NCBI GenBank assembly: GCA_949065595.1 | Contig: CARSXK010000004.1 | Coordinates: 1 to 56,801, forward strand | DNA from: an uncultured Bacilli bacterium | GTDB taxonomy: Bacteria; Bacillota_I; Bacilli_A; RF39; UBA660 | Direction of reading: 5' to 3' | Length of the DNA: 56,801 bases | Shown: positions 4,565 through 31,692 of the stretch, one piece after another | How the letters are laid out: every line of letters begins with the position of its first letter | Numbering within the stretch: the stretch's first letter is position 1 | Notes under the pieces: generated by a model | What the model saw: the letters and a program-made list of their open reading frames with translations, nothing else | Databases searched by the model: none | What the model was told of the DNA's origin: nothing | Made by a program: the position numbers and the translations under genes

Positions 4565-5002
4565 TTATTTGCATTGATAATTCTGTTTTTCAAATGTTTG
4601 TTTGGCGTCATTAAAATTTTGTTTTGTATCTACGATATCTAAACTCTTTTTGCTCGCTTCATCCATTTTTGAAAGATCTATATTTACCGCAATTTTGATG
4701 TTATTTTTATCTGTTGTAGATGTCACTTCAAATCCATTCATTCCTTCAAATCCTGTAAAAACACCTTTCAATGATTCTTCTAATTGTTGGATATAAACTG
4801 AATAATTTTCTGCAACGGCGATATCTTCAATATATTCTACTTTTGTAATCGTATCTTTTTTGAAAGTGATAGTATATGTTTCTTTCTTGTTCATAATAGA
4901 AGAATTATCCTCTTTGGAACATTTTAATGTTTTGTTAGAACCGCAGCCTGTTACGATACTAATCATTATAATGGTAAAACAAACGACTAAATACTTCTTC
5001 AT
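4565..5002 (-). CDS. putative lipoprotein (possibly YehR/DUF1307-like)
   Basis: Signal peptide with lipobox 'IVTGC'. A GGAGG SD lies upstream and a terminator downstream. Confidence 0.6.
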   Translation of the reverse strand: MKKYLVVCFTIIMISIVTGCGSNKTLKCSKEDNSSIMNKKETYTITFKKDTITKVEYIEDIAVAENYSVYIQQLEESLKGVFTGFEGMNGFEVTSTTDKNNIKIAVNIDLSKMDEASKKSLDIVDTKQNFNDAKQTFEKQNYQCK

Positions 5003-5055
5003 TTTCTTTCCTCCCTAATGTTAGAATAATAAAAAATCCTATTTTTGTCAAGCAT

Positions 5056-5625
5056 TTATAGGATTTTATCAACAATGCCATATGCTAGGGATTCTTCGGC
5101 ACTTAAAAAATAATCTCTTTCTGTATCTACCTCAATGGTTTTCAAATCTTTTCCTGTATTTTTAGAAAGCATATGATTTAATTTATCACGCAATTTTAAA
5201 ATGCGTTCTGCTGCAATTTTGATTTCTGTCGCCTGTCCTTGAGCACCCCCTAAAGGCTGATGTATCATCACTTCACTATTGGGAAGACAACACCTTTTTC
5301 CTTTTGTTCCACTAGACAACAAGAACGCAGCCATACTTGCTGCCATTCCTACACATATAGTTGAAACATCACTTTTGATAAAATGCATTGTATCATAGAT
5401 AGCCATTCCAGCAGTGACACTCCCACCTGGAGAATTGATATAAATGCTAATATCATCATGGTTGATGGAATCTAAATATAATAGTTGGGCAACAATGGTA
5501 TTCGAATTAATATCGTCAATTTCACCACATAAAATAATAATTCGATCTTTTAATAATCGTGAATATATATCATAAGCACGCTCTCCATTGTTACTTTTTT
5601 CAATTACAGTTGGTACTAAACTCAT
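5056..5625 (-). CDS. clpP: ATP-dependent Clp protease proteolytic subunit
   Basis: '[16 protein letters not shown]', catalytic '[11 protein letters not shown]' and 'MIHQPLGG'. Confidence 0.95.
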
Positions 5626-5743
5626 GCAATCATCCTCTCTATTTATATCATAGGATAGAATTCGATTGTTTATTCAAAAAAAGATGTGACAAAATTACAC
5701 TTTTTTGATAAAATGAGTATAGTATAAGAATAAGAGGGATATT

Positions 5744-7405
5744 ATGCCAAGAACCATTAAAGTAAATTATAAAGATTTGGAAACCAAAGAATTCCCAGTA
5801 GGCGCGACGTTACTGGAAATTAGTCATGCCTTTGATCGCTACTATAATTATCCAATACTAGTAGGAAATGTAGACAATAATATTACGGAATTAAATGAGC
5901 CAATGACAAGAAGCTGCACCGTTGATTTTTATGATCGAAGTAGCGGAGTTGGAAATAGTATATATGGTAGAACCGCACAACTGATATTGATTTTGGCAAT
6001 CAAACGGGTTTTAGGTGAAAAAGCGGAAGTAATTATTGAGCATTCTATTGATAAAGGTTTTTATTGTGAAATTGAAAATGTTTCTATTGATAAAAAAGTA
6101 GTCAAGCAAATTGAAGATGAAATGTATGAAATTTCAAATCAGGATTTATTAATTCAGAAGGTGAGTGTGTCACGTTTTGATGCAATGAAATATTTTAAAA
6201 AGAAAAAGCAATTGGATAAGGTAAAAGTATTAAAATATATTAGTAACAGCTATATTAATTTGTATCGGATTGATGATTTGTATGACTATTTTTATGGAGA
6301 ACTTGCTTATAGTACAAAACAAATCGATGATTTTAAATTGACGTTTATTAAAGACAATGGATTTGTGTTAAGTTATCCTACCATGTATAACCCAGAGTGT
6401 ACGTTGGATTATATGCACCATAGTATGCTCTTTGATACATTTTTGAGTTATACCAAATGGGGAAATCAAATTGGCATTCGAAATGCAGCTGATTTAAATG
6501 AAATTGTATCACAAGGAAGATATAATGAGTTAATTCGTTTGTCAGAAGCTTATTATAATAGTCAATTATCTCGTATTGCAGATGAAATTGCTGAAAATCA
6601 TAAAAAAATAAAATTAATCTTAATCGCTGGACCTTCCTCATCTGGAAAAACAACGACTTCCAAAAAATTAGAAGTTTATTTGCAAAGTAAGGGAATTCAA
6701 ACGCATCAAATTTCTATCGACGATTATTTTTATGATCGAGACAAAACACCAAGATTAGAAAATGGGGAACTTGATTTTGAATCTTTGAATGCAGTAGATG
6801 TTACATTATTTAATAAACACTTAACCAAATTGTTAGATGGTGAGAAAGTAGAATTGCCAGAATACAATTTTGTTCTTGGTAAAAGAGAATACAAAGGAAA
6901 AACATTACAAATAGGAGAGGACGATGTGATTGTCATTGAAGGATTGCATGGGTTAAATGATGATTTGACAATTTCAATTGAACGAAGAAATAAATTTAAA
7001 ATTTATATCAGTCCTCTTACACAATTGAATATCGATAATCATAATCGAATTCATACCAGTGATACTCGGAAGTTAAGGAGAATTGTTCGTGACAATAAAT
7101 ATCGTTCCCATAGCGCGACAGATACATTGAAAATGTGGAAAAGCATTCGCGAAGGGGAAGAAAAGTATATATTTCCATATCAAGATCAGGCAGACGCTAT
7201 GATTAATTCTGCTTTGTTATATGAACTTGGCATATTAAAAACGTATGCAGAACCTCTTTTGTTTTCTGTTTCTGAAGATGATGAAATGTATCCAGAAGCA
7301 TTACGTTTGATTAATTTTTTAAGGAATTTTTTGCCAATCCCAAGTGATGATATACCAAACGATTCTATTTTAAGAGAATTCATTGGAGAAAGTTGTTTTC
7401 GATAA
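5744..7405 (+). CDS. uridine/nucleoside kinase family protein with ThrRS/TGS-like N-terminal region
   Basis: P-loop 'AGPSSSGKTTTSKKL' in the C-terminal half. The roughly 550-aa architecture is common in Firmicutes. Confidence 0.7.
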   Translation: MPRTIKVNYKDLETKEFPVGATLLEISHAFDRYYNYPILVGNVDNNITELNEPMTRSCTVDFYDRSSGVGNSIYGRTAQLILILAIKRVLGEKAEVIIEHSIDKGFYCEIENVSIDKKVVKQIEDEMYEISNQDLLIQKVSVSRFDAMKYFKKKKQLDKVKVLKYISNSYINLYRIDDLYDYFYGELAYSTKQIDDFKLTFIKDNGFVLSYPTMYNPECTLDYMHHSMLFDTFLSYTKWGNQIGIRNAADLNEIVSQGRYNELIRLSEAYYNSQLSRIADEIAENHKKIKLILIAGPSSSGKTTTSKKLEVYLQSKGIQTHQISIDDYFYDRDKTPRLENGELDFESLNAVDVTLFNKHLTKLLDGEKVELPEYNFVLGKREYKGKTLQIGEDDVIVIEGLHGLNDDLTISIERRNKFKIYISPLTQLNIDNHNRIHTSDTRKLRRIVRDNKYRSHSATDTLKMWKSIREGEEKYIFPYQDQADAMINSALLYELGILKTYAEPLLFSVSEDDEMYPEALRLINFLRNFLPIPSDDIPNDSILREFIGESCFR

Positions 7406-18749: not shown

Positions 18750-19076
18750 ATGAGTATTAATATGGAAGAATTAACTAAAAAGATAAGAAAATTTGCAGAG
18801 GAAAGAGATTGGTTACAATTTAACACCCCAGAAAATCTTGCTAAATCAATTGCGATAGAGGCTGGAGAATTATTAGAGTGTTTTCAGTGGAATAGCAATT
18901 ATGATAAGGATGAATTAAAATATGAAATAGCGGATGTAATGAATTATTGTATATTATTGTGTTCACAAATAGGAGTGAATCCGAAAGAAATAATTCTTGA
19001 AAAAATGGATATATCTGCTAAAAAATATCCAGTTGATAAGGCAAAAGGAGTTAGTACAAAATATACTAAATTATAG
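18750..19076 (+). CDS. MazG-like / DCTPP1-like nucleotide pyrophosphohydrolase
   Basis: 'FAEERDWLQFNTPENLAKSIAIEAGELLECFQW...EIADVMNYCILL' is the typical short all-alpha NTP-PPase pattern. Confidence 0.7.
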   Translation: MSINMEELTKKIRKFAEERDWLQFNTPENLAKSIAIEAGELLECFQWNSNYDKDELKYEIADVMNYCILLCSQIGVNPKEIILEKMDISAKKYPVDKAKGVSTKYTKL

Positions 19077-19095
19077 TTTTAAGGAGATATATACT

Positions 19096-20868
19096 ATGGA
19101 ATTAACCAATCCTATTATAAAAAAAATAGAGGACAATGAATTTAGTTTAAGCCAATTTGAAGAACAAATAAATGCCTGTAAAGATAAAAATGAAAAAATG
19201 ATTATACGGGATTATCCAACTGTATATATTCATACATGGGAAAATAAGGGTATTTATGAGGTTTATGTTGGAGAAACAAATGATATTTTTAGAAGAACAA
19301 GACAGCATTATGAGGATAGCCGATTTGCAGAAAACTGGCAATATAATTTAAAGTTAAGTGATAATAGTTTATATGTGATAGGCCATGAGCATTTTAATAA
19401 GTCATTAACTTTGGATATTGAAAATAAATTAAGAGATTATTTAACGGGTGTTGATAGTGTTAGGAGAGTTCATAATATAAAGGCAAATCCACAAAATCAG
19501 TATTATCCAGCAAATGAATTTGATCAAATATTTCATAAAATATGGAAAAATTTAACAAAATATAATAATAAATTATTTCCTTTAGAGAGTGAAGTAATTA
19601 ATTCTGCAATTTTTAAAGCCTCACCATTACATAAACTAACCAGAGATCAACAAAGGGCAAAGGAATTAATAATAAGTAAAATTATAGAGGCATCAATCAC
19701 TAGAAAAAGTGGAAAATTAATATTTGTAGAGGGTGGAACAGGAACTGGTAAAACAGTATTAAATAGTAGTACTTTTTACGAATTATGTTGTATGAATGAG
19801 ACATCTATTGAGGATGATTCTAAACCAAAAATTAAAGAATTAAAATGTTGTTTAATTGTTAATCACAAGGAACAAGAAAATCTTTATAGACAAATATTCA
19901 AAAAATTTGGTATTGAGGATAATACTTTATATTCCCCAATTAAGTTTATTAATAAGCATGACATTAATAGCCCTATTGATGTTGCATTCATAGATGAGGC
20001 ACATTTATTGTTAACGCAGGGTAAGCAATCTTATAAAGGTAAGAATCAGTTGCAGGATATTATGAACCGTGCACGGGTAACTGTTGTAATGTTTGATATG
20101 AGTCAAATTTTGACTGTTGAACAATATTGGGAATATGAACTTTTAGAAAAATATAAAAATATGGCAAGAGAAAATAATAATTATATTGTTCTTACAGAAC
20201 AATTAAGAATTCAAGCGAACAAAGATGTTATTCAATGGATTGAGAACTTTACGAAAAATGGTATTGTTACTAAACTTCCAAATAATTTAGAAAACTATGA
20301 TATTAAGGTATTCGATACACCAAAGCTTTTAGAAGATATGATAAAGCAGAAAGCAAAGGATAAAAATTCGAAATTGTCTAGATTAGTGGCTACATATGAT
20401 TGGAAATATAGTTCCTTGTATACAAATAATGAACAATATTGGGAAGTAACTATAGGTAAATGGCATAAACCATGGAATTATGAAATGGCCAGAAAATTTA
20501 ACAGGAATGAGAAAAAGAAAATTAAGGACAAAGCTTGGGATGAACAAGAACATACTATTGATGAGATAGGATCAACATTTACAATTCAGGGCTTTGATTT
20601 AAATTATGTTGGTGTGATTATAGGACCATCGGTAAAATATAGAAATAATCGGATTGTTTATTGTCCTGAGTTTAGCTGGAATCGCAGGGCAGTTATAAAA
20701 AGAAGGATGTCTGATGGTACCTATAAAGAATTCGGGGAACAATTAATAAAAAATCAATTAAGAGTATTAATGACTAGAGGTGTCAATGGTCTATATATTT
20801 ATGCATGTGACGAAGAATTAAGAGAACATTTAAAAAAATGTGTTGAAAAAAGATACATATATAAATAG
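19096..20868 (+). CDS. GIY-YIG nuclease domain fused to a DUF2075 (Schlafen-group-3-helicase-like) P-loop ATPase
   Basis: N-terminal 'KGIYEVYVGETNDIFRRTRQH' (GIY...YVG...R), Walker A 'GGTGTGKT', Walker B 'VAFIDEAH', C-terminal 'LRVLMTRGVNGLYIY'. ATG 19096 follows AAGGAG, 19 nt after the MazG-like stop. Confidence 0.65.
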   Translation: MELTNPIIKKIEDNEFSLSQFEEQINACKDKNEKMIIRDYPTVYIHTWENKGIYEVYVGETNDIFRRTRQHYEDSRFAENWQYNLKLSDNSLYVIGHEHFNKSLTLDIENKLRDYLTGVDSVRRVHNIKANPQNQYYPANEFDQIFHKIWKNLTKYNNKLFPLESEVINSAIFKASPLHKLTRDQQRAKELIISKIIEASITRKSGKLIFVEGGTGTGKTVLNSSTFYELCCMNETSIEDDSKPKIKELKCCLIVNHKEQENLYRQIFKKFGIEDNTLYSPIKFINKHDINSPIDVAFIDEAHLLLTQGKQSYKGKNQLQDIMNRARVTVVMFDMSQILTVEQYWEYELLEKYKNMARENNNYIVLTEQLRIQANKDVIQWIENFTKNGIVTKLPNNLENYDIKVFDTPKLLEDMIKQKAKDKNSKLSRLVATYDWKYSSLYTNNEQYWEVTIGKWHKPWNYEMARKFNRNEKKKIKDKAWDEQEHTIDEIGSTFTIQGFDLNYVGVIIGPSVKYRNNRIVYCPEFSWNRRAVIKRRMSDGTYKEFGEQLIKNQLRVLMTRGVNGLYIYACDEELREHLKKCVEKRYIYK

Positions 20869-20997: not shown

Positions 20998-21039
20998 ATG
21001 AATAATTTTCAAGTCGTTGTAGATGCTGGACATGGCTGA
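20998..21039 (+). pseudogene. 5' fragment (13 codons, MNNFQVVVDAGHG*) of the split N-acetylmuramoyl-L-alanine amidase gene
   Basis: A TATAAT box (20974..20979) and AGGAGG SD precede the ATG. The frame is cut inside the Amidase_3 'DAGHGG' motif by the element. Confidence 0.8.
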
Positions 21040-21054
21040 TACAGTTATGCCAAG
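21037..21054. repeat. left terminal inverted repeat arm (TGATACAGTTATGCCAAG)
   Basis: 14/18 match to the reverse complement of 30486..30503. Confidence 0.7.
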
Positions 21055-21094
21055 ACAAGTGAGAAGGCATGTTAGGGCAGATAATACAAGGAAT

Positions 21095-21118
21095 GATACA
21101 CATTGTATCGTTTTTTTT
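21095..21118 (+). terminator. intrinsic terminator just inside the left end
   Basis: GATACA-CAT-TGTATC stem-loop, then G and T8. It would block read-through from the amidase promoter. Confidence 0.6.
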
Positions 21119-21189
21119 ATTTTGTCAAGGTAAAGGTCTTACCATGAGTTTATTTGCAATTCGTGTCTATAATAGTGTCATGAAAGGAG
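21113..21189 (+). promoter_or_regulatory. repeated ~77-nt regulatory module, copy A
   Basis: About 87% identical to 25092..25168. Contains TTGTCAA, dyad GGTAA-N5-TTACC, TATAAT and SD GAAAGGAG. Confidence 0.6.
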
Positions 21190-21196
21190 CAAAAAA

Positions 21197-21445
21197 ATGT
21201 TTAATATGGGTATTGATTGGGACAATGAAATTAAATTTATTTGTAGTGTTGATTGGGACGATATAGTTAATTTACATAATATAAGAAAAGGGTTGAAAAA
21301 GGGAGAGTTTACCGAAATACAAATTGAAGAAAGACCTTGCGTTTTAATTAGTAAGCATAACATTTTATGTAATAAAACACTTTTAGAATGCGTATGGGAA
21401 CATGATGATATATTATTTATAAAAATGAAAAAAACGGTTGATTAG
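21197..21445 (+). CDS. hypothetical protein (82 aa)
   Basis: ATG 8 nt after GAAAGGAG of module A. No recognisable motif. Confidence 0.45.
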   Translation: MFNMGIDWDNEIKFICSVDWDDIVNLHNIRKGLKKGEFTEIQIEERPCVLISKHNILCNKTLLECVWEHDDILFIKMKKTVD

Positions 21446-21645
21446 CCGTTTTCTTTTTGTATTTTATCTTTTAATTTTAAGTTATCTAGGGCATATCTTA
21501 TACATTGGTTTATCAATTCATTTCTACTAATATCAATTTCATTTGCTAGTTTGTCAATTTCTTCTAGCATAGTGTTATCTATACGAATTGTTGCAACAAC
21601 TTTTTCAATAGAAGTCGGTTTTTTATAAGGTTCAAATTCTTTCAT
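21442..21645 (-). CDS. ribbon-helix-helix (CopG/Arc-like) DNA-binding protein
   Basis: Beta-strand 'VVATIRIDNTML' followed by two helices, 'EEIDKLANEIDISRNELINQCIRYALDNL'. Confidence 0.65.
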   Translation of the reverse strand: MKEFEPYKKPTSIEKVVATIRIDNTMLEEIDKLANEIDISRNELINQCIRYALDNLKLKDKIQKENG

Positions 21646-21761
21646 AATTTCACGCCCTTTCTATATATATTTTAATGCTTTTTTGTCTTTGATAATATAC
21701 TTAATATGCGAAGTTAAAATACATCATATAATGTAATCTATGATAAAATACAAAAATGTAA

Positions 21762-21790
21762 TTGACACAATTTGATAATAGTAGTAGAAT
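21762..21790 (+). promoter_or_regulatory. sigma-A promoter TTGACA-17-TAGAAT
   Basis: Consensus -35, 17-nt spacer, good -10. Lies upstream of the surface-protein gene. Confidence 0.55.
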
Positions 21791-21872
21791 GAAATTGTCG
21801 GTAAGAAGTACCATGTCCGACATTGCAGTAATGTTGGTGGCAGTATGCAGTTATGCCAACATATGCATTATC

Positions 21873-21906
21873 GGAACACAAGGAAGTTTATCGTGTTCCA
21901 TTTTTT
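21873..21906 (+). terminator. leader terminator/attenuator upstream of the surface-protein gene
   Basis: GGAACAC/GTGTTCC stem followed by A and T6, 70 nt before ATG 21976. Confidence 0.55.
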
Positions 21907-21975
21907 AAATAATAATGTTTAAAGGACATTTATTATAGATAAAATTTTAATATGTTAGAAAGGAAAGATAAAAAA

Positions 21976-23250
21976 ATGAAAAAAACAAGTAAAATTTTAT
22001 TATCAGCATTAGCAGTATCTAGTATGTTCTTTACTATGACAGTTAATGCAGAAGAACTAACACCAAGTGAAAATCAAGAGCCAGTACAAGTAACTAGAAT
22101 GGGGGCAGAGACTTTTGATGCCATAACAAAGGAAAAATTTGATAGTATTGTCCCAAATACTATTGAAATTACTAAAACTAAAACAGAATTTTCTAATGCA
22201 GTTGTCAAAGATAATGGAAGTCTAAACGAGGATTTAACTAAAATAATAGAAGAAATTAATACAGAGATAGAAACAGAAATAATATCTTTATTTGAAAATT
22301 CAGGATATATGGATACAGAAGAGATAGAAAAAGAAGCAATAAAAGCACAATTTAATGACCCTTTTTACGATTTGTATTCAGTAACAGTTTCATTAAATAT
22401 AGATGGGAAAACAAAATATTCAAAAGATATAACAATTAAATATGCAAAAGAAAGTAATTATAGTGCAACTGATGAAACTTATGTAAAAAATGCCGTTAAC
22501 AGTATTAAATTTGCAAAATATGGCAATAGCGATTGGGGAATTGAAGAAAGTGATGCTGTATTTACAATGTATAACATAGGCGATGAAGAAAGTACTAAGA
22601 ATTGGGGGTATGAGAATTATGATTTTAATACCTTAATCAATGATAATTCTATAACTATTAAAACTTCAGTGTTTGCAGGTGGTTTTGGTGGTGGTACTCC
22701 TTGGGGTACTCCTGTATTATTACATTTTTATAAAAATGGTGTATTATATGAAACAAAGTCAATTTGGTATTTAGGTGCTTATGGAATAACACTAGAAAAT
22801 GGAACACCTGTTAATATGGCAAGATTAGAACAAGACGACGAAATTTACAAAGCAATGGCAAAAGAATTAGAAAGTAAAGGCTTTACAAATGTTCTAGGTT
22901 GTTATGAGTTGACGGCTTATGGAACAACTTATGACAATATGAGAGTATCATTTAATCTAGGAACTAACTATAATGGTAAAGAAGTGCAAATATTACATAA
23001 AAAGAAAGACAATACTTATGAAATATTTAAAACAACAGTAGCAGACGGAAAAGCAGAAATAACAGTTAATGAGTTTTCACCATTCATGATTGCTTTAACT
23101 GAAAACACTACTACTGAAAATGTAAATAAAGCACCTAACAATGCTCAAACTTCTTCAATGAATATTGTATTATATTCTATATTGGCTCTTGGCTCTCTAG
23201 TGGGAATTACTTATATATTAGTTAGCAATAAGAAAAAGGAAATAGCCTAG
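21976..23250 (+). CDS. secreted surface protein with class-B-sortase-type sorting signal (NAQTS + TM helix + KKKE tail)
   Basis: Signal peptide 'MKKTSKILLSALAVSSMFFTMTVNA'. C-terminus 'APNNAQTSSMNIVLYSILALGSLVGITYILVSNKKKEIA'. ATG 21976 follows AAAGGAAAG. Confidence 0.7.
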   Translation: MKKTSKILLSALAVSSMFFTMTVNAEELTPSENQEPVQVTRMGAETFDAITKEKFDSIVPNTIEITKTKTEFSNAVVKDNGSLNEDLTKIIEEINTEIETEIISLFENSGYMDTEEIEKEAIKAQFNDPFYDLYSVTVSLNIDGKTKYSKDITIKYAKESNYSATDETYVKNAVNSIKFAKYGNSDWGIEESDAVFTMYNIGDEESTKNWGYENYDFNTLINDNSITIKTSVFAGGFGGGTPWGTPVLLHFYKNGVLYETKSIWYLGAYGITLENGTPVNMARLEQDDEIYKAMAKELESKGFTNVLGCYELTAYGTTYDNMRVSFNLGTNYNGKEVQILHKKKDNTYEIFKTTVADGKAEITVNEFSPFMIALTENTTTENVNKAPNNAQTSSMNIVLYSILALGSLVGITYILVSNKKKEIA

Positions 23251-23276
23251 TTGCTATTTCTTTCTATTTTAGGACT

Positions 23277-24023
23277 ATGAAAAGAAAAATTAAAGTAAAA
23301 AATATTATATTGATTTTATTTATAGTAGTGTTCTTATTCTCTACTACTCAAATTGTGTTATTCTTATTTGATTCACACAAAAATAAAAAGGAAACAAAAG
23401 AACTTATACAAGATGTTATCAATATAGAAATAGAAGAAGAAAAAGAAGTTTTTAAAATTGATTTTGATAAGTTATTATCTATTAATAGTGATACTGTTGG
23501 TTGGGTACGATTTAATAGTGATAAGGTAAATAACCCTATTGTACATACAAGTGATAATTCGTATTATTTAAAAAGGTCTTTTGATAAATCATATAATCAA
23601 GCAGGAGCAATATTCATGGACTACAGAAATACATCTTTTAATGATAAAAATGTTGTATTATTCGGTCATGCTATGCTAGATGACACAATGTTTGGCTCAC
23701 TACAAGACATATTTAAAAATGGTTTCTTTGATACGAAAGAAAATAACTATATTCAAATATACAATAAAGACAATGAACTTCTAACCTATCAAATATTTAG
23801 TTATTATATTATTGAAAAGGAAGAATATTATATAACTACTTCATTTAATAGTGATAGTGATTTCAATAAATTTATTGATACCATTACAAGAAGAAGTTAT
23901 AAAAAATTTGATGTTGAAGTAAATACAAGTGATAAAATACTTACACTCTCTACTTGTTCGGGTACGGGTGGAACATCTAAAAGAAAGGTTGTACACGCAA
24001 AAAGAGTTGAAAATTTAGAATAG
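23277..24023 (+). CDS. srtB: class B sortase
   Basis: N-terminal TM anchor, 'VGWVRF...NPIVHTSDNSYYL', 'VLFGHAM', catalytic 'LTLSTCS'. Confidence 0.85.
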   Translation: MKRKIKVKNIILILFIVVFLFSTTQIVLFLFDSHKNKKETKELIQDVINIEIEEEKEVFKIDFDKLLSINSDTVGWVRFNSDKVNNPIVHTSDNSYYLKRSFDKSYNQAGAIFMDYRNTSFNDKNVVLFGHAMLDDTMFGSLQDIFKNGFFDTKENNYIQIYNKDNELLTYQIFSYYIIEKEEYYITTSFNSDSDFNKFIDTITRRSYKKFDVEVNTSDKILTLSTCSGTGGTSKRKVVHAKRVENLE

Positions 24024-24130
24024 TCTATAAAATAATTTTGGGACAAATAATTGTGATCCAAAATTATTTTTTGTTTTAATATATATAATAATGGTAAAAA
24101 ATGGTATAATTGTCGTAGGAGGAATGCTTT

Positions 24131-24592
24131 ATGAATAATGAAATAGAATTTATTTGTCAAAAATGTGGAAAAAATTTTTATAAATCAAATGAGGAAAAAG
24201 TAATAAAATGCCCCTTTTGTCATGCTAAAGATACTTTTATGTCATTAAGTCAAAAAGACTTTGAAAATATTATGGAAGTGGAAAATCTAAAAATTACTTG
24301 TGATAATTGCTTGGCTAATTTTAACGGAGAACAATTGATAACTAATGATTTTAAATGCCCAACATGTAATAAAAAGTATAGTGAAGATAGTGTATACAAT
24401 TCAATAAAAAAGATAGAAAAAAGATATGCATGTAATACATGCAATTGTAAATTTTCAACGGAAGTATTTTTTGCATATAATGGTTCTTGTCCTAATTGTC
24501 ATGATAATTTAATGTCTATTGAACAATGGGAAGATTATAAAGCAGTTGAATTAGACGGAAAAATACCTGATGAAGATTGGCAAAATTTGTAA
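24131..24592 (+). CDS. protein with three tandem CxxC...CxxC zinc-ribbon units
   Basis: 'CQKCG..KCPFC', 'CDNC..KCPTC' and 'CNTCN..CPNC'. TGGTATAAT extended -10 and AGGAGG lie upstream. Confidence 0.6.
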   Translation: MNNEIEFICQKCGKNFYKSNEEKVIKCPFCHAKDTFMSLSQKDFENIMEVENLKITCDNCLANFNGEQLITNDFKCPTCNKKYSEDSVYNSIKKIEKRYACNTCNCKFSTEVFFAYNGSCPNCHDNLMSIEQWEDYKAVELDGKIPDEDWQNL

Positions 24593-24616
24593 TATAGTGC
24601 TGAATAGAGGTTAATT

Positions 24617-25048
24617 ATGAAAAATGAAGAATTAGAAGAATTAGTATGTAGATTTGAAGATAATTTTGGTATAGACGGAAAGTTAGAGAAAAACTTTTCT
24701 GAAAAATTTAAAATACTACTAGAAGAAAAAGAAATTGAAGTAGACGAATTTATGGAAGAAACGGGGTTAAGCGATGAAATATTTGGTAATTATTGCAAAG
24801 GGAAAAGTGACCCAAGTTTAAGAAGTATAACCGCATTTTGTCATGCTTTTGAATTTGATAGAAATGCTTTTGATAGTTTATTAAAAGCGGGAGGCTTCAC
24901 AGTTAATTATCGAAAGAAAAGAGATTGTGCATATGCTTTTTTGATAACTGATTGTGCTGATTTGAGCATTGAAGATTGTAATAAAATTTTAAAAAAGATA
25001 GGGTTGGAAGAACACGAATTATTGCCAATACCTAAAAAATTAAAATAA
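24617..25048 (+). CDS. XRE-like helix-turn-helix protein
   Basis: 'FKILLEEKEIEVDEFMEETGLSDEIFGNYCKGKSDPSLRSITAFCHAF' has an HTH_3-like pattern. Confidence 0.5.
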   Translation: MKNEELEELVCRFEDNFGIDGKLEKNFSEKFKILLEEKEIEVDEFMEETGLSDEIFGNYCKGKSDPSLRSITAFCHAFEFDRNAFDSLLKAGGFTVNYRKKRDCAYAFLITDCADLSIEDCNKILKKIGLEEHELLPIPKKLK

Positions 25049-25091
25049 TATATATCGTTGTTTTATAAGGTCATAACTTAATAATTATGGC

Positions 25092-25168
25092 TTTTTTATT
25101 TTGTCAAGGTAAAGGCTTTACCGTGAGTTGATTTGCAAGTTGTGGTTATAATGGTGTCACGAAAGGAG
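25092..25168 (+). promoter_or_regulatory. repeated ~77-nt regulatory module, copy B
   Basis: Paralog of 21113..21189. The dyad here is GGTAAAG-G-CTTTACC. Confidence 0.6.
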
Positions 25169-25178
25169 GAAAGAGGCA

Positions 25179-25535
25179 TTGAAAACAAGTGATATTGTTA
25201 TTGATGTCATCAAAACTATTGGTAAAGCACCTTATCTTGCATGTAGTTGCGACCCAATTTATGAATATGATGAACATAATAACAAAACTGACAATGTAAT
25301 TGGACATAAAGTTGAAATCTTGTTGCCACACATGAAATATGCTAAATTTGGTGTTAAAGTTGATAATACAACAAACCCACTACCAACTATTGAAGATGTT
25401 GTAGAAGTTGACTTTAACAACTTAATGATTGGCATTTATGTTGACCGTGCAGGAAGAATACAACCTTATGGGAAAGCTGATAGTGTTCGTATTGCTGATA
25501 AACAAAATATCAAAATGAATGCAAAGGCTGAATAA
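25179..25535 (+). CDS. hypothetical protein, possibly DUF961/HelP-like OB-fold accessory factor
   Basis: TTG start behind GAAAGGAGG. Its size and position, directly upstream of the Rep and coupling-protein genes, resemble ICEBs1 helP and Tn916 orf22/23. The sequence resemblance is only loose. Confidence 0.35.
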   Translation: MKTSDIVIDVIKTIGKAPYLACSCDPIYEYDEHNNKTDNVIGHKVEILLPHMKYAKFGVKVDNTTNPLPTIEDVVEVDFNNLMIGIYVDRAGRIQPYGKADSVRIADKQNIKMNAKAE

Positions 25536-25553
25536 TTACTAAAATTTATTATT

Positions 25554-25602
25554 GCTACATGCTACATGCTACACAATAAGTGGTAATACTAGCACTTATT
25601 GT
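25554..25602 (+). promoter_or_regulatory. candidate Rep origin (ori/oriT): 3 x 7-nt iterons plus stem-loop with a nonanucleotide-like loop
   Basis: GCTACAT GCTACAT GCTACAC (25554..25574) overlap a 10-bp perfect stem, ACAATAAGTG/CACTTATTGT (25573..25602), with loop GTAATACTAG. Confidence 0.6.
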
Positions 25603-25606
25603 TGGT

Positions 25607-25641
25607 GCGGAGGCAATCGTGGCTATCGCCACTTGCCCCGC
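25607..25641 (+). other. GC-rich nested hairpin (possible sso or accessory origin structure)
   Basis: GCGG-A-GGCAA pairs with TTGCCCCGC, enclosing GTGGC-TATC-GCCAC. It stands out in an AT-rich context. Confidence 0.45.
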
Positions 25642-25739
25642 AATGTACATGTATTATCTAGTATGTGTAATCGCATTAGTTCTTTGAAAATTTAATTATA
25701 TTTAATATTTGCTATAACAAACTTATTGGAGGTGTATAC

Positions 25740-26741
25740 ATGGCGGAAAATAGCCAATCTAGAAAATGGCAACTGACTATAAATAACCCCCAAGAACATG
25801 GAATAACGGACGAGTTTATACGAGAACAATTATTAAAATTTGCCCCCGAATATTATTGTATGGGTCGAGAGATTGGAAACAAGACCAAGACCGAACATAT
25901 ACATCTTTTTATCTATTCTAAATCTCCTATGAGGTTTACAACTATTAAAAATCGTTTCCCTATGGCTCATATAGAAAAAGCATACGGAAGTATTAGAGAT
26001 AATATAGATTATATACAAAAAAAGGGTAAGTGGGAAAATACCGCAAAAGAAGAAACTACCATTGAGGGCAGTTTTGTAGAACATGGAACGGTACCTACCG
26101 AACTAATAGAAAAAGACGCAACTATGGGTAAATTGTTAGAAGATATAAAAGACGGGAAATCTATTATTGAAATTATAGAAGATAATCCACAATTTGCATT
26201 TAAGATTAAAGATATAGAAACTATTAGACAAACTTATCTTAATGAAAGATATTCACGAGAAAATCGTGATTTGATAGTGACATATTTAAGTGGTCCAAGC
26301 GGTGTGGGAAAAACATTTAGTATTTTTAAAAAACATAAAGCAGATAATATTTGCCGTATAACAAGTTATAATTCAAGCCAAGGCGGTATAATTTTTGATA
26401 ATTATGATAGGTCGCAAGATGTACTTGTTTTTGAGGAATTTAGAAGTCAAATAAACCTAGAAAGCATGTTAAATTATTTAGATGTTTACCCACTACGACT
26501 TCCCGCTAGATACAATAATAAAGTGGCATGTTATACGAGGGTTTATATTACATCAAATGTTCCATTTGAAAATCAATATGCGGAATATAAACTGAATTCA
26601 AGAGATTATGCAGTATATAAAGCATGGTGTCGGCGAGTTCATAATATTTATGAAATGGTAAAAGAGCAAGACGGCTCTATAAAAATAATCACACATAAAG
26701 AAACTAAAAAAGAGGAGGAAAAAGTTATTGAAAATAAATAA
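25740..26741 (+). CDS. HUH endonuclease + SF3-helicase Rep protein (CRESS-virus/plasmid Rep-like; probable relaxase/replication initiator)
   Basis: Motif I 'WQLTINNP', motif II 'HIHLFIY', motif III 'YIQKKG', Walker A 'GPSGVGKT', Walker B 'VLVFEEF', motif C 'YITSN'. Confidence 0.8.
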   Translation: MAENSQSRKWQLTINNPQEHGITDEFIREQLLKFAPEYYCMGREIGNKTKTEHIHLFIYSKSPMRFTTIKNRFPMAHIEKAYGSIRDNIDYIQKKGKWENTAKEETTIEGSFVEHGTVPTELIEKDATMGKLLEDIKDGKSIIEIIEDNPQFAFKIKDIETIRQTYLNERYSRENRDLIVTYLSGPSGVGKTFSIFKKHKADNICRITSYNSSQGGIIFDNYDRSQDVLVFEEFRSQINLESMLNYLDVYPLRLPARYNNKVACYTRVYITSNVPFENQYAEYKLNSRDYAVYKAWCRRVHNIYEMVKEQDGSIKIITHKETKKEEEKVIENK

Positions 26742-28245
26742 AATAATTGAAATAAAAGATAAAATTAAAGGTTGGTATTGTAAAAGTAAAATAGTATCTA
26801 TTATTCAATCTATACTTTTAATTACATTTAAGGTTTTAAAATATATAATATGGCAATTATTTTATCATTGGAAGATTGGAGTATTTTTACTAACTATTAT
26901 ATGTTTATATTATTTCAATCAAAATGAAACATTGATAAATAAAGTTTTTGATTTTCATATTTTAAATTTCTATATTGCAAAAGTAATTACTTTATATGAT
27001 TTTCATAAAAATTTACAAATATCACAATATGTTTTAGAAGGTGCAATATTATTATTGATTATGTTATCTTTAATTTTTAGTTTTAGACTAAAGGATCTAA
27101 AACAAAACAAAATTAACAAAATTAAAGTATTGAAAGAAAAAGGTGTTGAATTACCATATTTTACATGGCGAACTAGATTGTGGTTAAACTTAAAAATAGC
27201 AGTATGGTATTGGAATATGAACGGAATAGACCCTAAAGTATTTGAAAGTGATGAGTTTAAAGGTAGTTTTCAGTCGGCATTTAATGTCACATTCATTGAT
27301 AAACAACCCGTAAAAAATAGTAAAAATACAATAAAATTGTTAGTTGCAAGTCGTAGATATAGTTTGCCTAACAAAATTTCAATAGATATACGAGATATAG
27401 ACTATTTTGGTCCTATATTTTTATTAGGGGAAAATTTAATAGGAAAAATAAAAATTGATATAAGTAAAAGACCTCATTTATTAATCGCAGGAGATACAGG
27501 AAGTGGTAAATCGGTGCTAATCGATTCACTTATTTATCAAGCCATGTTAAAAGGCTATGTGATTCGAGCATGTGACCCAAAACAAACTGAATTTAACGGG
27601 TGGCACAATCTTACTATAAGAAATACTAATCTTTTGAATACTGAAATTAAAGCTAGTCAATTTTTAAGAACAATGGATTTAAAAGGAACTTTAGAAGATT
27701 TAAAACTCATAGAAAAAGAATTAAGATTAAGACAAATGATTTTTGCAGATGTAAAATGTAGAAATATAGATAAATACAACAAAAAATTACACCATACAAA
27801 ATCAAGTATTCCTTTAAGTCGTGTAATTTATATTTTTGACGAGTTTGTAGAAATGATAACATCACAAGATAAAAAGACTGTATCGGAAATAGAACGAATA
27901 TTGAAACTCATAGCAACAAGAGGTCGTTCACTTGGTATACATCTTATTTTATCGTCACAAAGACCCGATTGTAATTTACTAGACGGACAAATAAAATCTA
28001 ATCTTTCCAATAGAATATGTGGTAGAATGCCTGATAGGTCGGCATCCGAAACGGCTTTAGGTAAAGGGAATTATGATGCATGTACTTTAATAGGTGAAGA
28101 CGAATTAGGTAAATTTGTTACAAATGACGGTAAATGTTTTAAAGGTTATTTGCTTGATACTGATAAATTAACGGAAGAATTACACGAGCAATATGACAAA
28201 AAAGATACAAGCAATCTAGGAGGAAATAATAATGTTGAGCAATGA
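26728..28245 (+). CDS. FtsK/SpoIIIE-TcpA-like coupling ATPase, membrane anchored
   Basis: N-terminal TM helices, Walker A 'AGDTGSGKS', Walker B 'IYIFDEF', 'GIHLILSSQRP'. Confidence 0.8.
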   Translation: MKINKIIEIKDKIKGWYCKSKIVSIIQSILLITFKVLKYIIWQLFYHWKIGVFLLTIICLYYFNQNETLINKVFDFHILNFYIAKVITLYDFHKNLQISQYVLEGAILLLIMLSLIFSFRLKDLKQNKINKIKVLKEKGVELPYFTWRTRLWLNLKIAVWYWNMNGIDPKVFESDEFKGSFQSAFNVTFIDKQPVKNSKNTIKLLVASRRYSLPNKISIDIRDIDYFGPIFLLGENLIGKIKIDISKRPHLLIAGDTGSGKSVLIDSLIYQAMLKGYVIRACDPKQTEFNGWHNLTIRNTNLLNTEIKASQFLRTMDLKGTLEDLKLIEKELRLRQMIFADVKCRNIDKYNKKLHHTKSSIPLSRVIYIFDEFVEMITSQDKKTVSEIERILKLIATRGRSLGIHLILSSQRPDCNLLDGQIKSNLSNRICGRMPDRSASETALGKGNYDACTLIGEDELGKFVTNDGKCFKGYLLDTDKLTEELHEQYDKKDTSNLGGNNNVEQ

Positions 28246-28375
28246 AAAAAGTACGATTTGCCCCCGTACTTTTGCCCAATATCTTGCATGTATTGATAAA
28301 CCTAGTATAACAAATAACTTTCATATTGACAAGCACCCTATCATACCTTTTATTGAGGGGTTGAAATATGAATAA
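28232..28375 (+). CDS. small ORF (47 aa), hypothetical
   Basis: Not in the ORF track (shorter than 60 aa). AGGAGG sits 8 nt upstream. It overlaps the end of the FtsK-like gene and the start of the next small ORF. Confidence 0.35.
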   Translation: MLSNEKSTICPRTFAQYLACIDKPSITNNFHIDKHPIIPFIEGLKYE

Positions 28376-28493
28376 ATATAAAATTGTAGTATCTAGTGAA
28401 TTTCTAACGGACACAACAACGGACGAGTTTCTATCGCTTTTTAATGATAAATTGGCGACCCTATTTATCTATTATGAACAACAAACAAGTTAA
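28368..28493 (+). CDS. small ORF (41 aa), hypothetical (candidate recombination directionality factor)
   Basis: GAGGGG SD upstream. The 8-nt overlap with the previous small ORF suggests translational coupling. It lies directly upstream of the recombinase. Confidence 0.3.
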   Translation: MNKYKIVVSSEFLTDTTTDEFLSLFNDKLATLFIYYEQQTS

Positions 28494-28510
28494 ATATTAA
28501 ATAAAGGCTG

Positions 28511-28551
28511 AAATAATACAAGTTATAGTGTATAATATACTTGTATTATTT
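28511..28551 (+). terminator. 13-bp perfect hairpin between the small ORFs and the recombinase gene
   Basis: AAATAATACAAGT/ACTTGTATTATTT with a 15-nt loop that contains TATAAT. Confidence 0.45.
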
Positions 28552-28586
28552 TGACCTTAACATGTAATTAAGGAAAGGAATATTAT

Positions 28587-30485
28587 ATGTTAAGTGAACA
28601 AAAAGGCGGTGAAACTTATTCTTATAATAATACAAAATCAAGTTATAGTATTCAAAATGTTTCGTTAGAAGATTATACAAGTTCGGTTGAGTATAAAGCA
28701 ATCAAAGATTTACTTGTAGAAGATAGTCTTATTTATTGTACTGAATTTATAAGAAAACTATTAGATATTAAAAAGCCAAATGATACCACTTGTTTTACTT
28801 GTGGCGAGGGCAATCAAATAGTCTATAAGTTAGGGTATGGAAAAAGGACTTTATTGTATGTTCGATTATCAGTTGAAGATATACAAAGAAAAGATACAAC
28901 GGTTAGTAAAAGTATTTTAAATCAGTTGCTATTGCTACTACAATATTGCAAAGACCATGACCTAGAAGTTGTTGGCATTTTCTATGAGGAAGATATAAGC
29001 GGTGGCGATGAAAGTAGACCCGAGTGGAACAAGTCCTTAACTTTTTGTGAAAGAGGACACACCGACACTTATATTTGCAAAACACAATCACGATTTGCAA
29101 GAGATGTTGAAATGATAGAACGATACTTGCATAAAAGATTTATTGAGTGGAATATTCGTTTTTTAAGTATTGTAGACCATAGCGACACATCACAAAAAGG
29201 AAATAAACTACAAAGACAAATAACCGCAATCGTTGATGAAAATAAAATTGCTGAACAATCAATAAATACTAAAGCAACTTTACGAGGTAAAAATAAGGCG
29301 GGACAATGGACGGGGTCTTTTGCTTGTTATGGCTATATAGAAGACCCAAACGACCAATATCATCTAGTAGTAGACCCACCCGCAGCCCAAGTGGTGCAAA
29401 CAATATATAAAATGTATGCGGAGGGTATGGGGTACTTTAAAATATGTAAGTATCTTAATGAACATAATATACCTACACCAAGTAAATATAAGAAATTACA
29501 AGGGTCAAACTTTGTATGTCCTGTTGCCCCAAATGGTAGCGAGTTTTGGAACATTGATACGGTTGCAAAAATATTGAAAGATGAAACATACGACGGGTTA
29601 TTGATACAAAATAGAACGGAAACAATCTCACATAATATTAAGAAGTCAAGAAAATTGCCAAAGAGTGAGCAAACTATTGTTGCTTGTGCTCATGAAAGAA
29701 TTGTTGACCCTATTATATCAAGAATAGTACGAGATAAATTTGAGGCAAGGGCGAAAAAGTCAAGTGATAGTGATGACACTATACATGCAAGACCTAAACC
29801 CGATAAAAACGGCGAGGTACATATTTTTAGTCAAAAAGTATACTGTGCTCATTGTGGGAAAATTTTTCAAAAGACTAATGCTAAAAGTGGTCCTAGGAAA
29901 AACCCAACAAAGAAAGCATATTTACTATGTAGAACAAAGAAAAGAACTTGTGGAACGGGTTGTGATAATAACTCATCAATTCGTATTGAAGTCTTGGAAC
30001 AAATAGTACTAGACGAAATTAACAAACAAATAGAGAACTACTATAATCAATCTAAATTTGAAAAAAGTTATTATGAGAAGAAAGTAAACACCAATTATGA
30101 AAAAGATATAAAAGCACTAGAGGAAGAAAAGACCACCATTGAAAAGAAAATAAAAGATAATACCAATCGTTTTGCTTTACTTTATGAAGATAGAGCGAAC
30201 GAGATTATAACAACACAAGAATTTATGTTGTTGAAAACAAAATATAATGATGAAATAGAAAGGTTTAATAATCGTGTAAGTGAGATTGATAATACCATAA
30301 TCAATTTACGAAAGAAGAAAGACCAACAAATACACGAGCAAGATATATTTAAACAATATAGACATATTGATAAATTAGATAGACTTGTTGTTGAAACCTT
30401 TATATCAAAAATAATTGTTGGAAAAGTTGATAAAGAAACAAACGAAAGGGCTATAAATATTGTTTGGAATATTTGTAGCACCTAG
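28587..30485 (+). CDS. large serine recombinase (SpoIVCA/TndX-like)
   Basis: Catalytic 'LLYVRLSVEDIQ', recombinase domain, zinc ribbon 'CAHCGK...LLCRTKKRTCGTGC', long coiled-coil tail. The stop codon is 27 nt from the right junction. Confidence 0.9.
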   Translation: MLSEQKGGETYSYNNTKSSYSIQNVSLEDYTSSVEYKAIKDLLVEDSLIYCTEFIRKLLDIKKPNDTTCFTCGEGNQIVYKLGYGKRTLLYVRLSVEDIQRKDTTVSKSILNQLLLLLQYCKDHDLEVVGIFYEEDISGGDESRPEWNKSLTFCERGHTDTYICKTQSRFARDVEMIERYLHKRFIEWNIRFLSIVDHSDTSQKGNKLQRQITAIVDENKIAEQSINTKATLRGKNKAGQWTGSFACYGYIEDPNDQYHLVVDPPAAQVVQTIYKMYAEGMGYFKICKYLNEHNIPTPSKYKKLQGSNFVCPVAPNGSEFWNIDTVAKILKDETYDGLLIQNRTETISHNIKKSRKLPKSEQTIVACAHERIVDPIISRIVRDKFEARAKKSSDSDDTIHARPKPDKNGEVHIFSQKVYCAHCGKIFQKTNAKSGPRKNPTKKAYLLCRTKKRTCGTGCDNNSSIRIEVLEQIVLDEINKQIENYYNQSKFEKSYYEKKVNTNYEKDIKALEEEKTTIEKKIKDNTNRFALLYEDRANEIITTQEFMLLKTKYNDEIERFNNRVSEIDNTIINLRKKKDQQIHEQDIFKQYRHIDKLDRLVVETFISKIIVGKVDKETNERAINIVWNICST

Positions 30486-30503
30486 TTTGGTATAGCAGTA
30501 TCA
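30486..30503. repeat. right terminal inverted repeat arm (TTTGGTATAGCAGTATCA)
   Basis: Its reverse complement matches 21037..21054 at 14 of 18 positions. Confidence 0.7.
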
Positions 30504-30512
30504 AGGGCATGG

Positions 30513-31692
30513 TGGGAGTGATCCAGGCGCTGTTGCAAATGGTGTTCAAGAAAAAGATTTAAACTTGCAAATAGCCCGTTATATGTATGAACAGTTTCAA
30601 AATAGGGGAATTCCTGTAACATTAATTCGTAGCACAGATGAAACCATTAGTCCAACAGAACGTGTTAATAGAATACTTGCTGCCTATGGTGATAACCCTA
30701 ATGTAGTTGTTATTTCCAATCACATTAATGCATCAGGATCAGCAACATCGGGCGCAGAGGGTGCTGAAGTAATCTATGCTTTGAGAAATGATGATACACT
30801 TGCCAAAAATATATTACAGGCGATTGGAAACCAAGGGCAAGTTGTAAGAACCTATTATCAAAGACGATTACCAAGTGATACTTCAAAGGACTACTACTTT
30901 ATTCACAGAAATACAGGTAGTACCCAACCTGTGATTGTAGAATATGGATATATTGACAATCCATCCGATTTAGCACGTATTCAAAATAATTATAAAAAAT
31001 ATGTGGATGCTGTTGTAAATGCAGTTATCGCAACCAAACAAGGGCAAACTATTCCGTCTGCACCAGGAACAGGAACTTCTTATGTGGTGAAACCAGGAGA
31101 TAGTTTATGGAGTATCGCAAATCGCTATAATACTACTGTAAATGCAATTAAAAATATGAATAATCTAACAAGTAATACCCTATCAGTAGGGCAGGTACTA
31201 CAAATACCAACCAGTACATCTACTGGGACAGGAACAACTTATACTGTAAAATCAGGGGATAGTCTATGGAGTATCGCAAATCGTTATAATACTACTGTGG
31301 ATGCGATTAAAAATGCCAATAATTTAACTAGCAATACCTTATCGATTGGGCAAGTACTGCAAATACCAACGAGTACATCTACTGGGACAGGAATAACTTA
31401 TACTGTAAAATCAGGGGATAGTTTATGGAGTATTGCAAATCGTTATAATACTACTGTAAGTGCAATCAAAAGTGCCAACAATTTAACAAGTGACATACTA
31501 TCCATTGGGCAAGTACTACAAATACCAACGAGTACATCTACTGGGGCAGGAACTACTTATACCGTGAAATCAGGAGATAGTTTGTGGAGCATTGCGAATC
31601 GTTATAATACTACTGTCGATGCCATCAAAAAAGCGAGTGGAATTATCAGTAATAATTTAACCATTGGTCAAGTATTAACCATTCCAAATTAG
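30513..31692 (+). pseudogene. 3' portion of the split N-acetylmuramoyl-L-alanine amidase (Amidase_3 + 4 LysM)
   Basis: The frame opens at 30496 and reads 'GHGGSDPGAVANGVQEKDLNLQIARYM...ISNHINAS...EYGYIDN', then four LysM repeats. It has no start or SD of its own (the track uses TTG 30565). Confidence 0.8.
31081..31689 (+). repeat. four tandem ~159-bp LysM-plus-TSTSTGTG-linker coding repeats
   Basis: 'TYTVKSGDSLWSIANRYNTTV.AIK.ANNLTSN.LSIGQVLQIP' occurs four times with near-identical DNA. Confidence 0.9.

Follow-up and report, generated by a model that had tools for sequence, protein, structure and literature searches.

A predicted circovirus-type origin beside the HUH-SF3 rep gene of an integrated mobile element in an uncultured Bacilli bacterium

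A stretch of 56,801 nt from an uncultured Bacilli bacterium (contig CARSXK010000004.1, hereafter called the window) harbours an integrated element of 9.5 kb, in which a short intergenic module precedes rep, a gene coding for a protein with an HUH endonuclease and an SF3 helicase domain. The module (25553-25641) is made of three tandem iterons, a perfect stem-loop carrying the nonanucleotide of circoviruses and a GC-rich hairpin. Sequence comparison indicates that it is quite probably the cis-acting origin of an integrative mobilizable element, in other words of an integrated rolling-circle plasmid.

An earlier note on this DNA had described three heptamers, a perfect 10-bp stem with a 10-nt loop and a GC-rich hairpin upstream of rep, and all of these were retraced base for base (Table 1). 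The iterons and the stem share one base, and 138 nt separate the end of the stem from the ATG of rep at position 25740. Tandem Repeats Finder reported the iterons with a period of 7, 3.0 copies and 100% matches, and a separate repeat finder recovered the same repeats together with the inverted repeat. For the loop, sequence and position had been given correctly in the earlier note, but it had been read as the variant TAATACTAG on the plus strand. It is instead the exact complement of the circovirus nonamer TAGTATTAC, which is found on the minus strand (in the context ACAATAAGTGCTAGTATTACCACTTATTGT), and the nick is therefore predicted on the strand opposite rep.

The 204-nt intergenic region folds better than shuffled sequence, with z-scores of -5.4 on the plus and -4.2 on the minus strand, and none of 200 shuffles was as good. 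Within the 56.8-kb window, AGTATTAC occurs only once inside a hairpin loop, and a covariance model of the hairpin retrieved exactly one site. Apart from the iteron triplet, the hexamer GTAGCA/TGCTAC is present at chance density across the window. The complete model of the Rfam family RF03070 (positions 1-49 of 49) was aligned to the minus strand at 25553-25603 with 45.0 bits (E = 6e-7), the curated gathering score of this family being 41.5 bits.

The Rep protein displays the motifs KWQLTINNP (motif I), HIHLFIY (motif II) and YIQK (motif III, with Tyr91). Its helicase half contains a Walker A (GPSGVGKT), a Walker B with two glutamates (VLVFEEF), a motif C with Asn (ITSN) and an arginine pair. 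None of the 21 homologues compared differs in the catalytic residues of the HUH, YxxK and SF3 motifs. The protein matched the Pfam family PF02407 (Viral_Rep) with 31 bits (cutoff 26); the match of the helicase half to PF00910 was weak, with Walker A, Walker B and motif C conserved. Among solved structures the best match was the Rep of porcine circovirus 2 (7lar, E = 4e-8), which was aligned over residues 7-275 and thus across both the nuclease and the helicase domain.

The conservation of the module was investigated in a set of ~160 related loci taken from GTDB species genomes and from IMG/VR, which are designated here by L numbers. The Rep family itself comprises more than 1,500 protein clusters, with 456 loci in GTDB species genomes and 84 in IMG/VR. 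Genome loci were scanned for hairpins displaying ..TATTAC in their loops. Of 92 distinct GTDB loci, 90 have a stem-loop that contains NAGTATTAC or a close variant of it; the sequence of the other two (L022 and L026) breaks off a short distance upstream of rep. The stem-loop is located 45-160 nt upstream of rep, with the exception of L015, where it is found downstream, and two to three tandem iterons begin at the 3' arm or a few bases from it. The module was also present in 66 of the 71 IMG/VR relatives that have upstream sequence. The covariance model of the hairpin identified one site per locus, and RF03070 matched 17 of 20 relatives tested. The general layout is a GC-rich hairpin, a hairpin with a NAGTATTAC loop, tandem iterons abutting its 3' arm and the adjoining rep. 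The gene order is also recurrent among the relatives, with the conserved upstream protein, the origin, rep and an FtsK/TcpA-like gene following each other. The earlier note had considered such an arrangement unusual for an integrated element of Firmicutes. It turned out to be the rule for this Rep family and to be already catalogued and published, since the motif is found in nearly every relative with upstream sequence, corresponds to RF03070 and belongs to a published type of element.

A comparison of homologues for covariation in the stem and conservation of the loop had been proposed as a check, and both were clearly found. The register of a plain MAFFT alignment shifts between sequences, so that a model-based alignment and a count outwards from the loop were used. 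In 67 distinct homologues, 89.6% of the stem cells were paired, against 65.9% in shuffles, and none of 500 shuffles reached the observed value. The covariation score of the stem was 0.569, compared to 0.141 in shuffles and at most 0.207 in controls with slid partners, and changes on both sides were observed in 10 of 11 stem pairs in the model-based alignment. Counted outwards from the loop, pairing was 100% at positions 1-8, of which positions 1-5 are biased upwards by the rule used to select the loci, and fell to background beyond position 12.

The nonamer proved to be fixed in the family. Across 91 loci, TAGTATTAC was found 62 times, AAGTATTAC 18 times and CAGTATTAC 8 times, with other variants in the remaining 3. 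The iterons are in contrast specific to clades: GTAGCA is common to the clade of the window and to a clade whose Reps share 51-58% identity with that of the window, while more distant clades have GTGACA, GTCGCA, GTAACA, GTATCG, GTATTT and others. A constant nonamer combined with clade-specific iterons is the pattern expected of an origin recognised by Rep, with a common catalytic site and binding sites particular to each clade. Comparative evidence across the related loci therefore backs the earlier proposal that hairpin and iterons are the putative cognate origin and nick site of the adjacent Rep. Module presence next to rep, stem covariation and the fixed loop all agree with it.

Two loci of Flavonifractor/Pseudoflavonifractor, L085 (2912-2975) and L087 (2921-2975), have the altered loops TAAGCATTG and GAGTACTAC and the iterons ATCGCA and GTATCG. 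Both retain the hairpin and the GC hairpin, and they represent natural specificity variants.

The module does not have a single orientation. In most relatives the nonamer lies on the coding strand of rep. It lies opposite rep in the window and in L001-L004, L020-L025 and L180-L183, whose Reps are 62-98% identical to the window Rep, and inverted modules were identified in 3 IMG/VR loci as well. L179, with a Rep 71% identical to that of the window, has the module in the usual plus orientation. When L179 is compared with the window, the block GTTCTTTGAAAATTT, probably the promoter region of rep, is located outside the flipped segment. The iteron array of L179 ends with ...TAGCATGTATT directly before GTTCTTTGAAAATTT. 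The degenerate copy of the array end present at 25645-25657 in the window (ATGTACATGTATT) was probably left behind as a relic on the far side when the module was inverted. That close relatives differ by repeated inversion of the complete module speaks for a DNA site that is free in its orientation with respect to rep, rather than for a cis-acting leader RNA.

Two further repeats were noticed in the same intergenic region. Between the relic iterons and the GTTCTTTGAAAATTT block, the plus strand carries CTAGTATGTGTAATCGCATTAG (25658-25680), which starts with the CTAGTAT of the nonamer loop. It is conserved in the minus-oriented loci L003, L004, L021 and L023 and absent from the plus-oriented L179, and could be either a second Rep recognition site or a relic. 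Just 5' of the rep start, GCTATAACAAACTTATTGGAGGTG (25709-25734) combines an iteron-like GCTA(T)A with a copy of the 3' stem arm, ACTTATTG, which is an 86% match to 25594-25607. GCTATAACAAACTTATTGGAGGTG extends over the ribosome-binding site and may represent a half-site through which Rep autoregulates its gene, or the footprint of an ancestral plus-oriented arrangement.

The GC-rich hairpin was found to be a regular companion of the nonamer hairpin. Of 62 distinct loci, 60 have a z-score below -2 over the 80 nt located 5' of the latter, as read on the nonamer strand, and the median is -5.7. A gap of 0-5 nt separates the fold from the nonamer stem, and its place is 5' of the nonamer in every case. 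It is ~75 nt long, with a GC-rich base and an AT-rich tip, in the clade whose Reps are 51-58% identical to that of the window, and the clade of the window has a 35-nt version. Its place relative to the nonamer remains the same when the module is inverted; because this position is kept in either orientation, the GC hairpin can be regarded as part of the module and probably acts on the nonamer strand. Single-strand origins of rolling-circle plasmids, like the minus-strand origin of Ff phages, lie 5' of the nick and are the last part exposed on the displaced strand. By analogy, the GC hairpin is most likely a candidate single-strand (complementary-strand) origin. The earlier note had suggested this function, with which the place of the hairpin agrees, the agreement being one of position.

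Taken as an origin, the module would operate as follows. The three GTAGCAT iterons would be bound by Rep as double-stranded DNA, and the adjacent inverted repeat would be extruded or melted in such a way that the minus-strand loop displays TAGTATTAC. Tyr91 of the HUH domain would cut the minus strand at TAGTATT^AC, between positions 25585 and 25584, and remain linked to the 5' end. With the free 3'-OH as primer, DNA would then be synthesised by the rolling-circle mode in the direction of lower coordinates, while the SF3 helicase domain opens the duplex. The displaced minus strand could be re-circularised, which would maintain the excised circle, or passed to the FtsK/TcpA-like ATPase for transfer via the conjugation pore of a helper element, or both. 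The last part of the displaced strand to be exposed would be the GC hairpin, located immediately 5' of the nick, and this hairpin would most likely prime synthesis of the complementary strand. The displaced or transferred strand predicted for the window is the template strand of all genes of the element, and the fork is predicted to move towards lower coordinates.

Three other explanations of the module were considered. The first sees the element as a defective or satellite relative of inoviruses, in which the module would be the plus-strand origin of a phage together with a minus-strand origin or packaging hairpin, and the strand would be exported in virions. Reps 41-47% identical to that of the window do occur in Inoviridae circles bearing Zot, as well as in Lachnospiraceae loci (L007, L009, L010, L011, L013 and L014, at ~4900-5800) where a Zot-like gene lies directly upstream of the module. 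The order of a GC hairpin followed by a nick site also resembles the intergenic region of Ff phages. Chimeras of this kind have been published (PMC7000223). Nevertheless, neither Zot/pI nor a coat protein was matched in the window element with Pfam, PHROGs and tblastn, an ATPase of the FtsK/TcpA type being present instead, and no IMG/VR contig belongs to the clade of the window (Reps at least 62% identical to the window Rep). Classification of the window element as an inovirus prophage was rejected for its lack of Zot and coat genes, the Zot matches being those of L007, L009-L011, L013 and L014, and a satellite relative is considered unlikely.

Slightly less likely still is that the module serves as an operator or remnant only, with Rep binding the iterons to autoregulate rep in a decaying integrated plasmid that neither nicks nor replicates. 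The module does lie within the upstream region of rep, and an excised form was not found in public assemblies. The core genes of the element are however intact open reading frames, the hairpin is perfect and the nonamer exact. Near-identical copies are moreover present in other metagenome-assembled genomes at other amidase genes, which points to recent mobility. The least probable of the three, and very improbable in itself, is that the motif acts as a structured RNA, whether as a small RNA or as a 5' leader that regulates the helicase/rep gene in cis. In favour of an RNA, the match to RF03070 exceeds the threshold, and in most relatives the motif shares the coding strand of rep and immediately precedes its ribosome-binding site, at a distance of 45-60 nt from the gene, which is the place of a leader RNA. 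In the window and its closest relatives, however, it lies opposite rep and all neighbouring genes, its orientation differs between relatives with Reps 71% and 72% identical to the window Rep, its loop is a known DNA nick site, and tandem iterons are typical of double-stranded DNA binding.

Several points weigh against the interpretation of the module as the origin of a mobilizable element. Rfam gives no function for RF03070 and types it as 'Gene; sRNA', that is, as a candidate RNA. With regard to transcriptional context, scanning of 25536-25739 revealed neither an intrinsic terminator nor a sigma-70 promoter. No experimental report of nicking, replication or transfer by any family member was found in the searchable literature. 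No conjugation machinery was detected in the window, and no type IV secretion genes in the element, so that the helper is hypothetical. The predicted attP junction (...GCAGTATCAAGGGCATGG|CTGATACAGTTATGCC...) gave no match in public assemblies, a result that neither supports nor refutes mobility. Finally, the GC hairpin belongs to no Rfam family in the window and 20 relatives and shows no sequence match to characterised single-strand origins.

Table 1. Location of the origin module, its parts and the main genes of the integrated element in the window
Feature	Position	Strand	Remark
Tandem heptamer iterons TGCTACA x3, exact	25553-25573		direct sequence
Heptamers in the register of the earlier note, GCTACAT GCTACAT GCTACAC	25554-25574		
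Iterons in minus-strand reading, GTAGCAT GTAGCAT GTAGCA	25553-25573	-	abutting 3' arm of nonamer hairpin
Nonamer hairpin, minus-strand loop CTAGTATTAC	25573-25602	-	perfect stem, 10/10 bp
Stem arms ACAATAAGTG and CACTTATTGT	25573-25582 and 25593-25602		
Plus-strand 10-nt loop GTAATACTAG	25583-25592	+	
Nonanucleotide TAGTATTAC	25591 -> 25583	-	direct sequence
Predicted Rep nick TAGTATT^AC	between 25585 and 25584	-	inferred from circovirus and nanovirus biochemistry
GC-rich hairpin GCGGAGGCAATCGTGGCTATCGCCACTTGCCCCGC	25607-25641	-	4 nt 5' of nonamer hairpin on nonamer strand
Degenerate inverted copy of iteron-array end, ATGTACATGTATT	25645-25657	+	pairs with iterons in predicted fold
rep, HUH endonuclease and SF3 helicase, 333 aa	25740-26741	+	
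FtsK/SpoIIIE-family ATPase, N-terminal hydrophobic segments	26728-28245	+	TcpA-type putative coupling protein
Large serine recombinase	28587-30485	+	element integrase
Conserved 118-aa all-beta protein	25179-25535	+	immediately upstream of origin module
Integrated element, ~9.48 kb	21036-30512		inserted in N-acetylmuramoyl-L-alanine amidase (LysM) gene at DAGHGG codons

The ends of the element were defined by the interrupted amidase gene. The left (21031-21035) and right (30508-30512) junctions share the pentamer CATGG. Of the interrupted gene, the 5' part (20998-21035) starts with the ATG at 20998 (MNNFQVVVDAGHG), and the frame resumes in the 3' part (30513-31692) with GSDPGAVANG... Similarity to L002 and L003 stops at the right junction. 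In these close relatives, different amidase genes are split at the same DAGHGG/GHGG-coding motif (10740-10815 in L002; 2400-2425 and 10780-10840 in L003), and the serine recombinase seems to target this conserved coding motif of amidase genes. To the left of the element in L002, the region 900-1110 resembles the C-terminus of another large serine recombinase gene and not the 5' end of an amidase gene, which suggests tandem or nested elements at that site.

All genes of the element are on the plus strand. Two small open reading frames, a 432-aa protein, a class B sortase, a zinc-ribbon protein, a helix-turn-helix protein and the 118-aa protein are followed by the origin module, rep, the FtsK/SpoIIIE-family ATPase and the large serine recombinase. 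The ATPase matched PF01580 with 60.9 bits and an FtsK/SpoIIIE-like PHROG with an E-value of 2e-44, and a homologue directly follows rep in 76 of 95 loci. The recombinase contains the domains Resolvase, Recombinase, Zn_ribbon_recom and DUF4368 and matched an integrase PHROG (1e-80). Homologues of the 118-aa protein were found upstream of the module in 26 loci. For this protein, nothing significant was obtained from Pfam, NCBIfam and PHROGs, nor from PDB, which was searched both with the single sequence and with a profile. An AlphaFold model predicted from the single sequence had low confidence (pLDDT 57.6), and Foldseek matched it to 2k5d only at E = 4.4. Capsid or structural genes of the element were not matched by Pfam or PHROGs.

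In the left part of the element (21952-24023), the 432-aa protein, which has no family match, precedes the class B sortase (TIGR03064, 195 bits). It is probably a sortase-anchored surface protein, representing cargo or a mating or exclusion factor. Genes for a MazG-like pyrophosphatase and a 623-aa helicase of the Schlafen group 3 type with a weak GIY-YIG match (18750-20868) were considered as cargo and rejected, as they lie outside the left junction. They could belong to an island, perhaps one for defence, next to the site of insertion. The remaining window is ordinary chromosome with genes for glycolysis, acetate kinase, LysRS, penicillin-binding protein and phosphoketolase.

The type of element, the homology of its Rep and the motif of hairpin and iterons (as RF03070) are already known, and the element of the window is a typical member of a widespread family. 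Specialists will hardly be surprised, the protein homology being known and the motif catalogued. The present analysis adds that RF03070 can be tied explicitly to an origin of the circovirus type, that a GC hairpin accompanies it and that the module has been inverted repeatedly, and it also gives the exact ends and target of this element. On balance, we favour the view that RF03070 is not an RNA but the DNA double-strand origin, and also the origin of transfer (oriT), of a large bacterial family of replicons with HUH-SF3 Reps, cut at TAGTATT^AC as in circoviruses. The same moderately confident view holds that the combination of nonamer, hairpin and 3' iterons pre-existed in bacterial integrated plasmids and filamentous phages and was inherited together with Rep by the eukaryotic CRESS viruses. 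The module and its GC hairpin could form an evolutionarily invertible cassette, the orientation of which decides which strand is displaced, with export either by conjugation or in inovirus particles.

An orphan Rfam motif would in this way gain a concrete function in biochemical terms, that of the sites which a circovirus-like Rep binds and nicks. Beyond Rep, a cis-acting origin appears to be common to bacterial integrated elements, a Bifidobacterium plasmid, filamentous phages of Gram-positive bacteria, circoviruses and nanoviruses, which strengthens the plasmid-to-virus scenario for the CRESS-DNA viruses. A bacterial system is thereby offered for the study of this type of origin, and a likely oriT for a class of mobilizable elements previously without a known one.

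RF03070 is one of the closest counterparts among known systems. Its name, 'ssNA-helicase', presumably stands for single-stranded nucleic acid and leaves DNA open. The window motif scores above the gathering threshold and adjoins a gene (rep) with a helicase domain. It shares with the consensus a hairpin with a UAGUAUUAC loop followed by AUGUAGCAUGUAGCA next to a helicase-domain gene. It differs by three iterons instead of the two of the consensus, by a diverged stem (ACAATAAGTG against CCATAAGG), by its location opposite the gene and by its interpretation as a DNA origin. The family stems from the survey of Weinberg et al. (2017; PMC5737381), whose main text does not discuss the motif.

The origin of porcine circovirus is a stem-loop with A/TAGTATTAC, flanked at the 3' arm by hexamer repeats and served by Rep/Rep'. 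With circoviruses and nanoviruses, the window shares the identical nonamer, tandem iterons directly 3' of the stem and an HUH and SF3 Rep homologous to that of porcine circovirus 2. The sequence hallmarks of a CRESS-type origin are present, namely a stem with the nonamer in its loop, adjacent iterons (the putative Rep-binding sites) and an HUH-SF3 Rep in cis. The host is in contrast bacterial, and the element, a double-stranded DNA of 9.5 kb, is integrated by means of a serine recombinase and lacks a capsid gene. The additional GC hairpin by the nick site further distinguishes it from circoviruses, as does motif II of Rep, which reads HUH in the window and HUQ in circoviruses. Assignment to the CRESS-DNA viruses (Cressdnaviricota) was rejected on account of the size, the chromosomal integration and the missing capsid match.

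Viral-like Reps encoded in integrated plasmids were described as pCRESS1-9 by Kazlauskas et al. (2019; PMC6668415), and groups 1-3, 5 and 8 have FtsK-like ATPases and a small single-strand-binding-like protein in common. The window element resembles the p4M-like cluster, and most of all pCRESS2, in its nuclease-helicase Rep, FtsK-like ATPase and site-specific integration. It also encodes a small conserved protein upstream, but comparison of this protein with 2k5d, which the single-strand-binding protein of pCRESS2 elements resembles, gave no significant match. Compared by description, its Rep carries the signature of pCRESS2, namely HUH in motif II, no YLxH in motif III, the glutamates of Walker B and the Asn of motif C. 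The pCRESS elements mostly use tyrosine integrases and tRNA or rpsI targets (PMC6668415), whereas a large serine recombinase and an amidase gene are involved here. No mention of a nonanucleotide or stem-loop origin was found in the text or supplements of that study, nor was a description of a nonanucleotide origin in pCRESS or PF02407 elements found in the searchable literature.

Integrative mobilizable elements of streptococci with a PF02407 'relaxase' and a TcpA coupling protein have been reported (Coluzzi et al., 2017, PMC5357655; Guedon et al., 2017, PMC5704250). They combine an integrase, a PF02407 Rep and an FtsK-like ATPase as in the window, and these were proposed there to act in mobilisation and maintenance. 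The two streptococcal examples were presented without an oriT; here a candidate oriT/origin is defined and found family-wide. With its own integrase, defined ends, a PF02407 Rep and a membrane-anchored FtsK-like protein, and with no mating-pore genes, the element of the window matches these integrative mobilizable elements in its gene set.

The plasmid p4M of Bifidobacterium pseudocatenulatum is the prototype of the Rep cluster. Its RepA is 26.5% identical to the window Rep, and its origin follows the same grammar with the nonamer TAGTGTTAC and GTACCA iterons: a GC hairpin, gtgggcggCATAGTGTTACccgcccac, GTACCAGTACCAG, a ribosome-binding site and repA. Inovirus genomes with CRESS-type Reps were reported by Tisza et al. 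(2020; PMC7000223). The circular 'bajarodino virus' genomes assigned to Inoviridae, which encode Zot and the Reps 41-47% identical to that of the window, have the same three-part module. L096 and L097 are such circles of 5.7-10 kb carrying this Rep family, and in L097 TCTAGTATTAC is displayed in a hairpin and followed by GTCGCA iterons. These inoviruses are 5-10 kb circles with Zot and structural genes, none of which is present in the window element. One and the same cassette of Rep and origin thus serves filamentous phages, plasmid p4M and integrated mobilizable elements.

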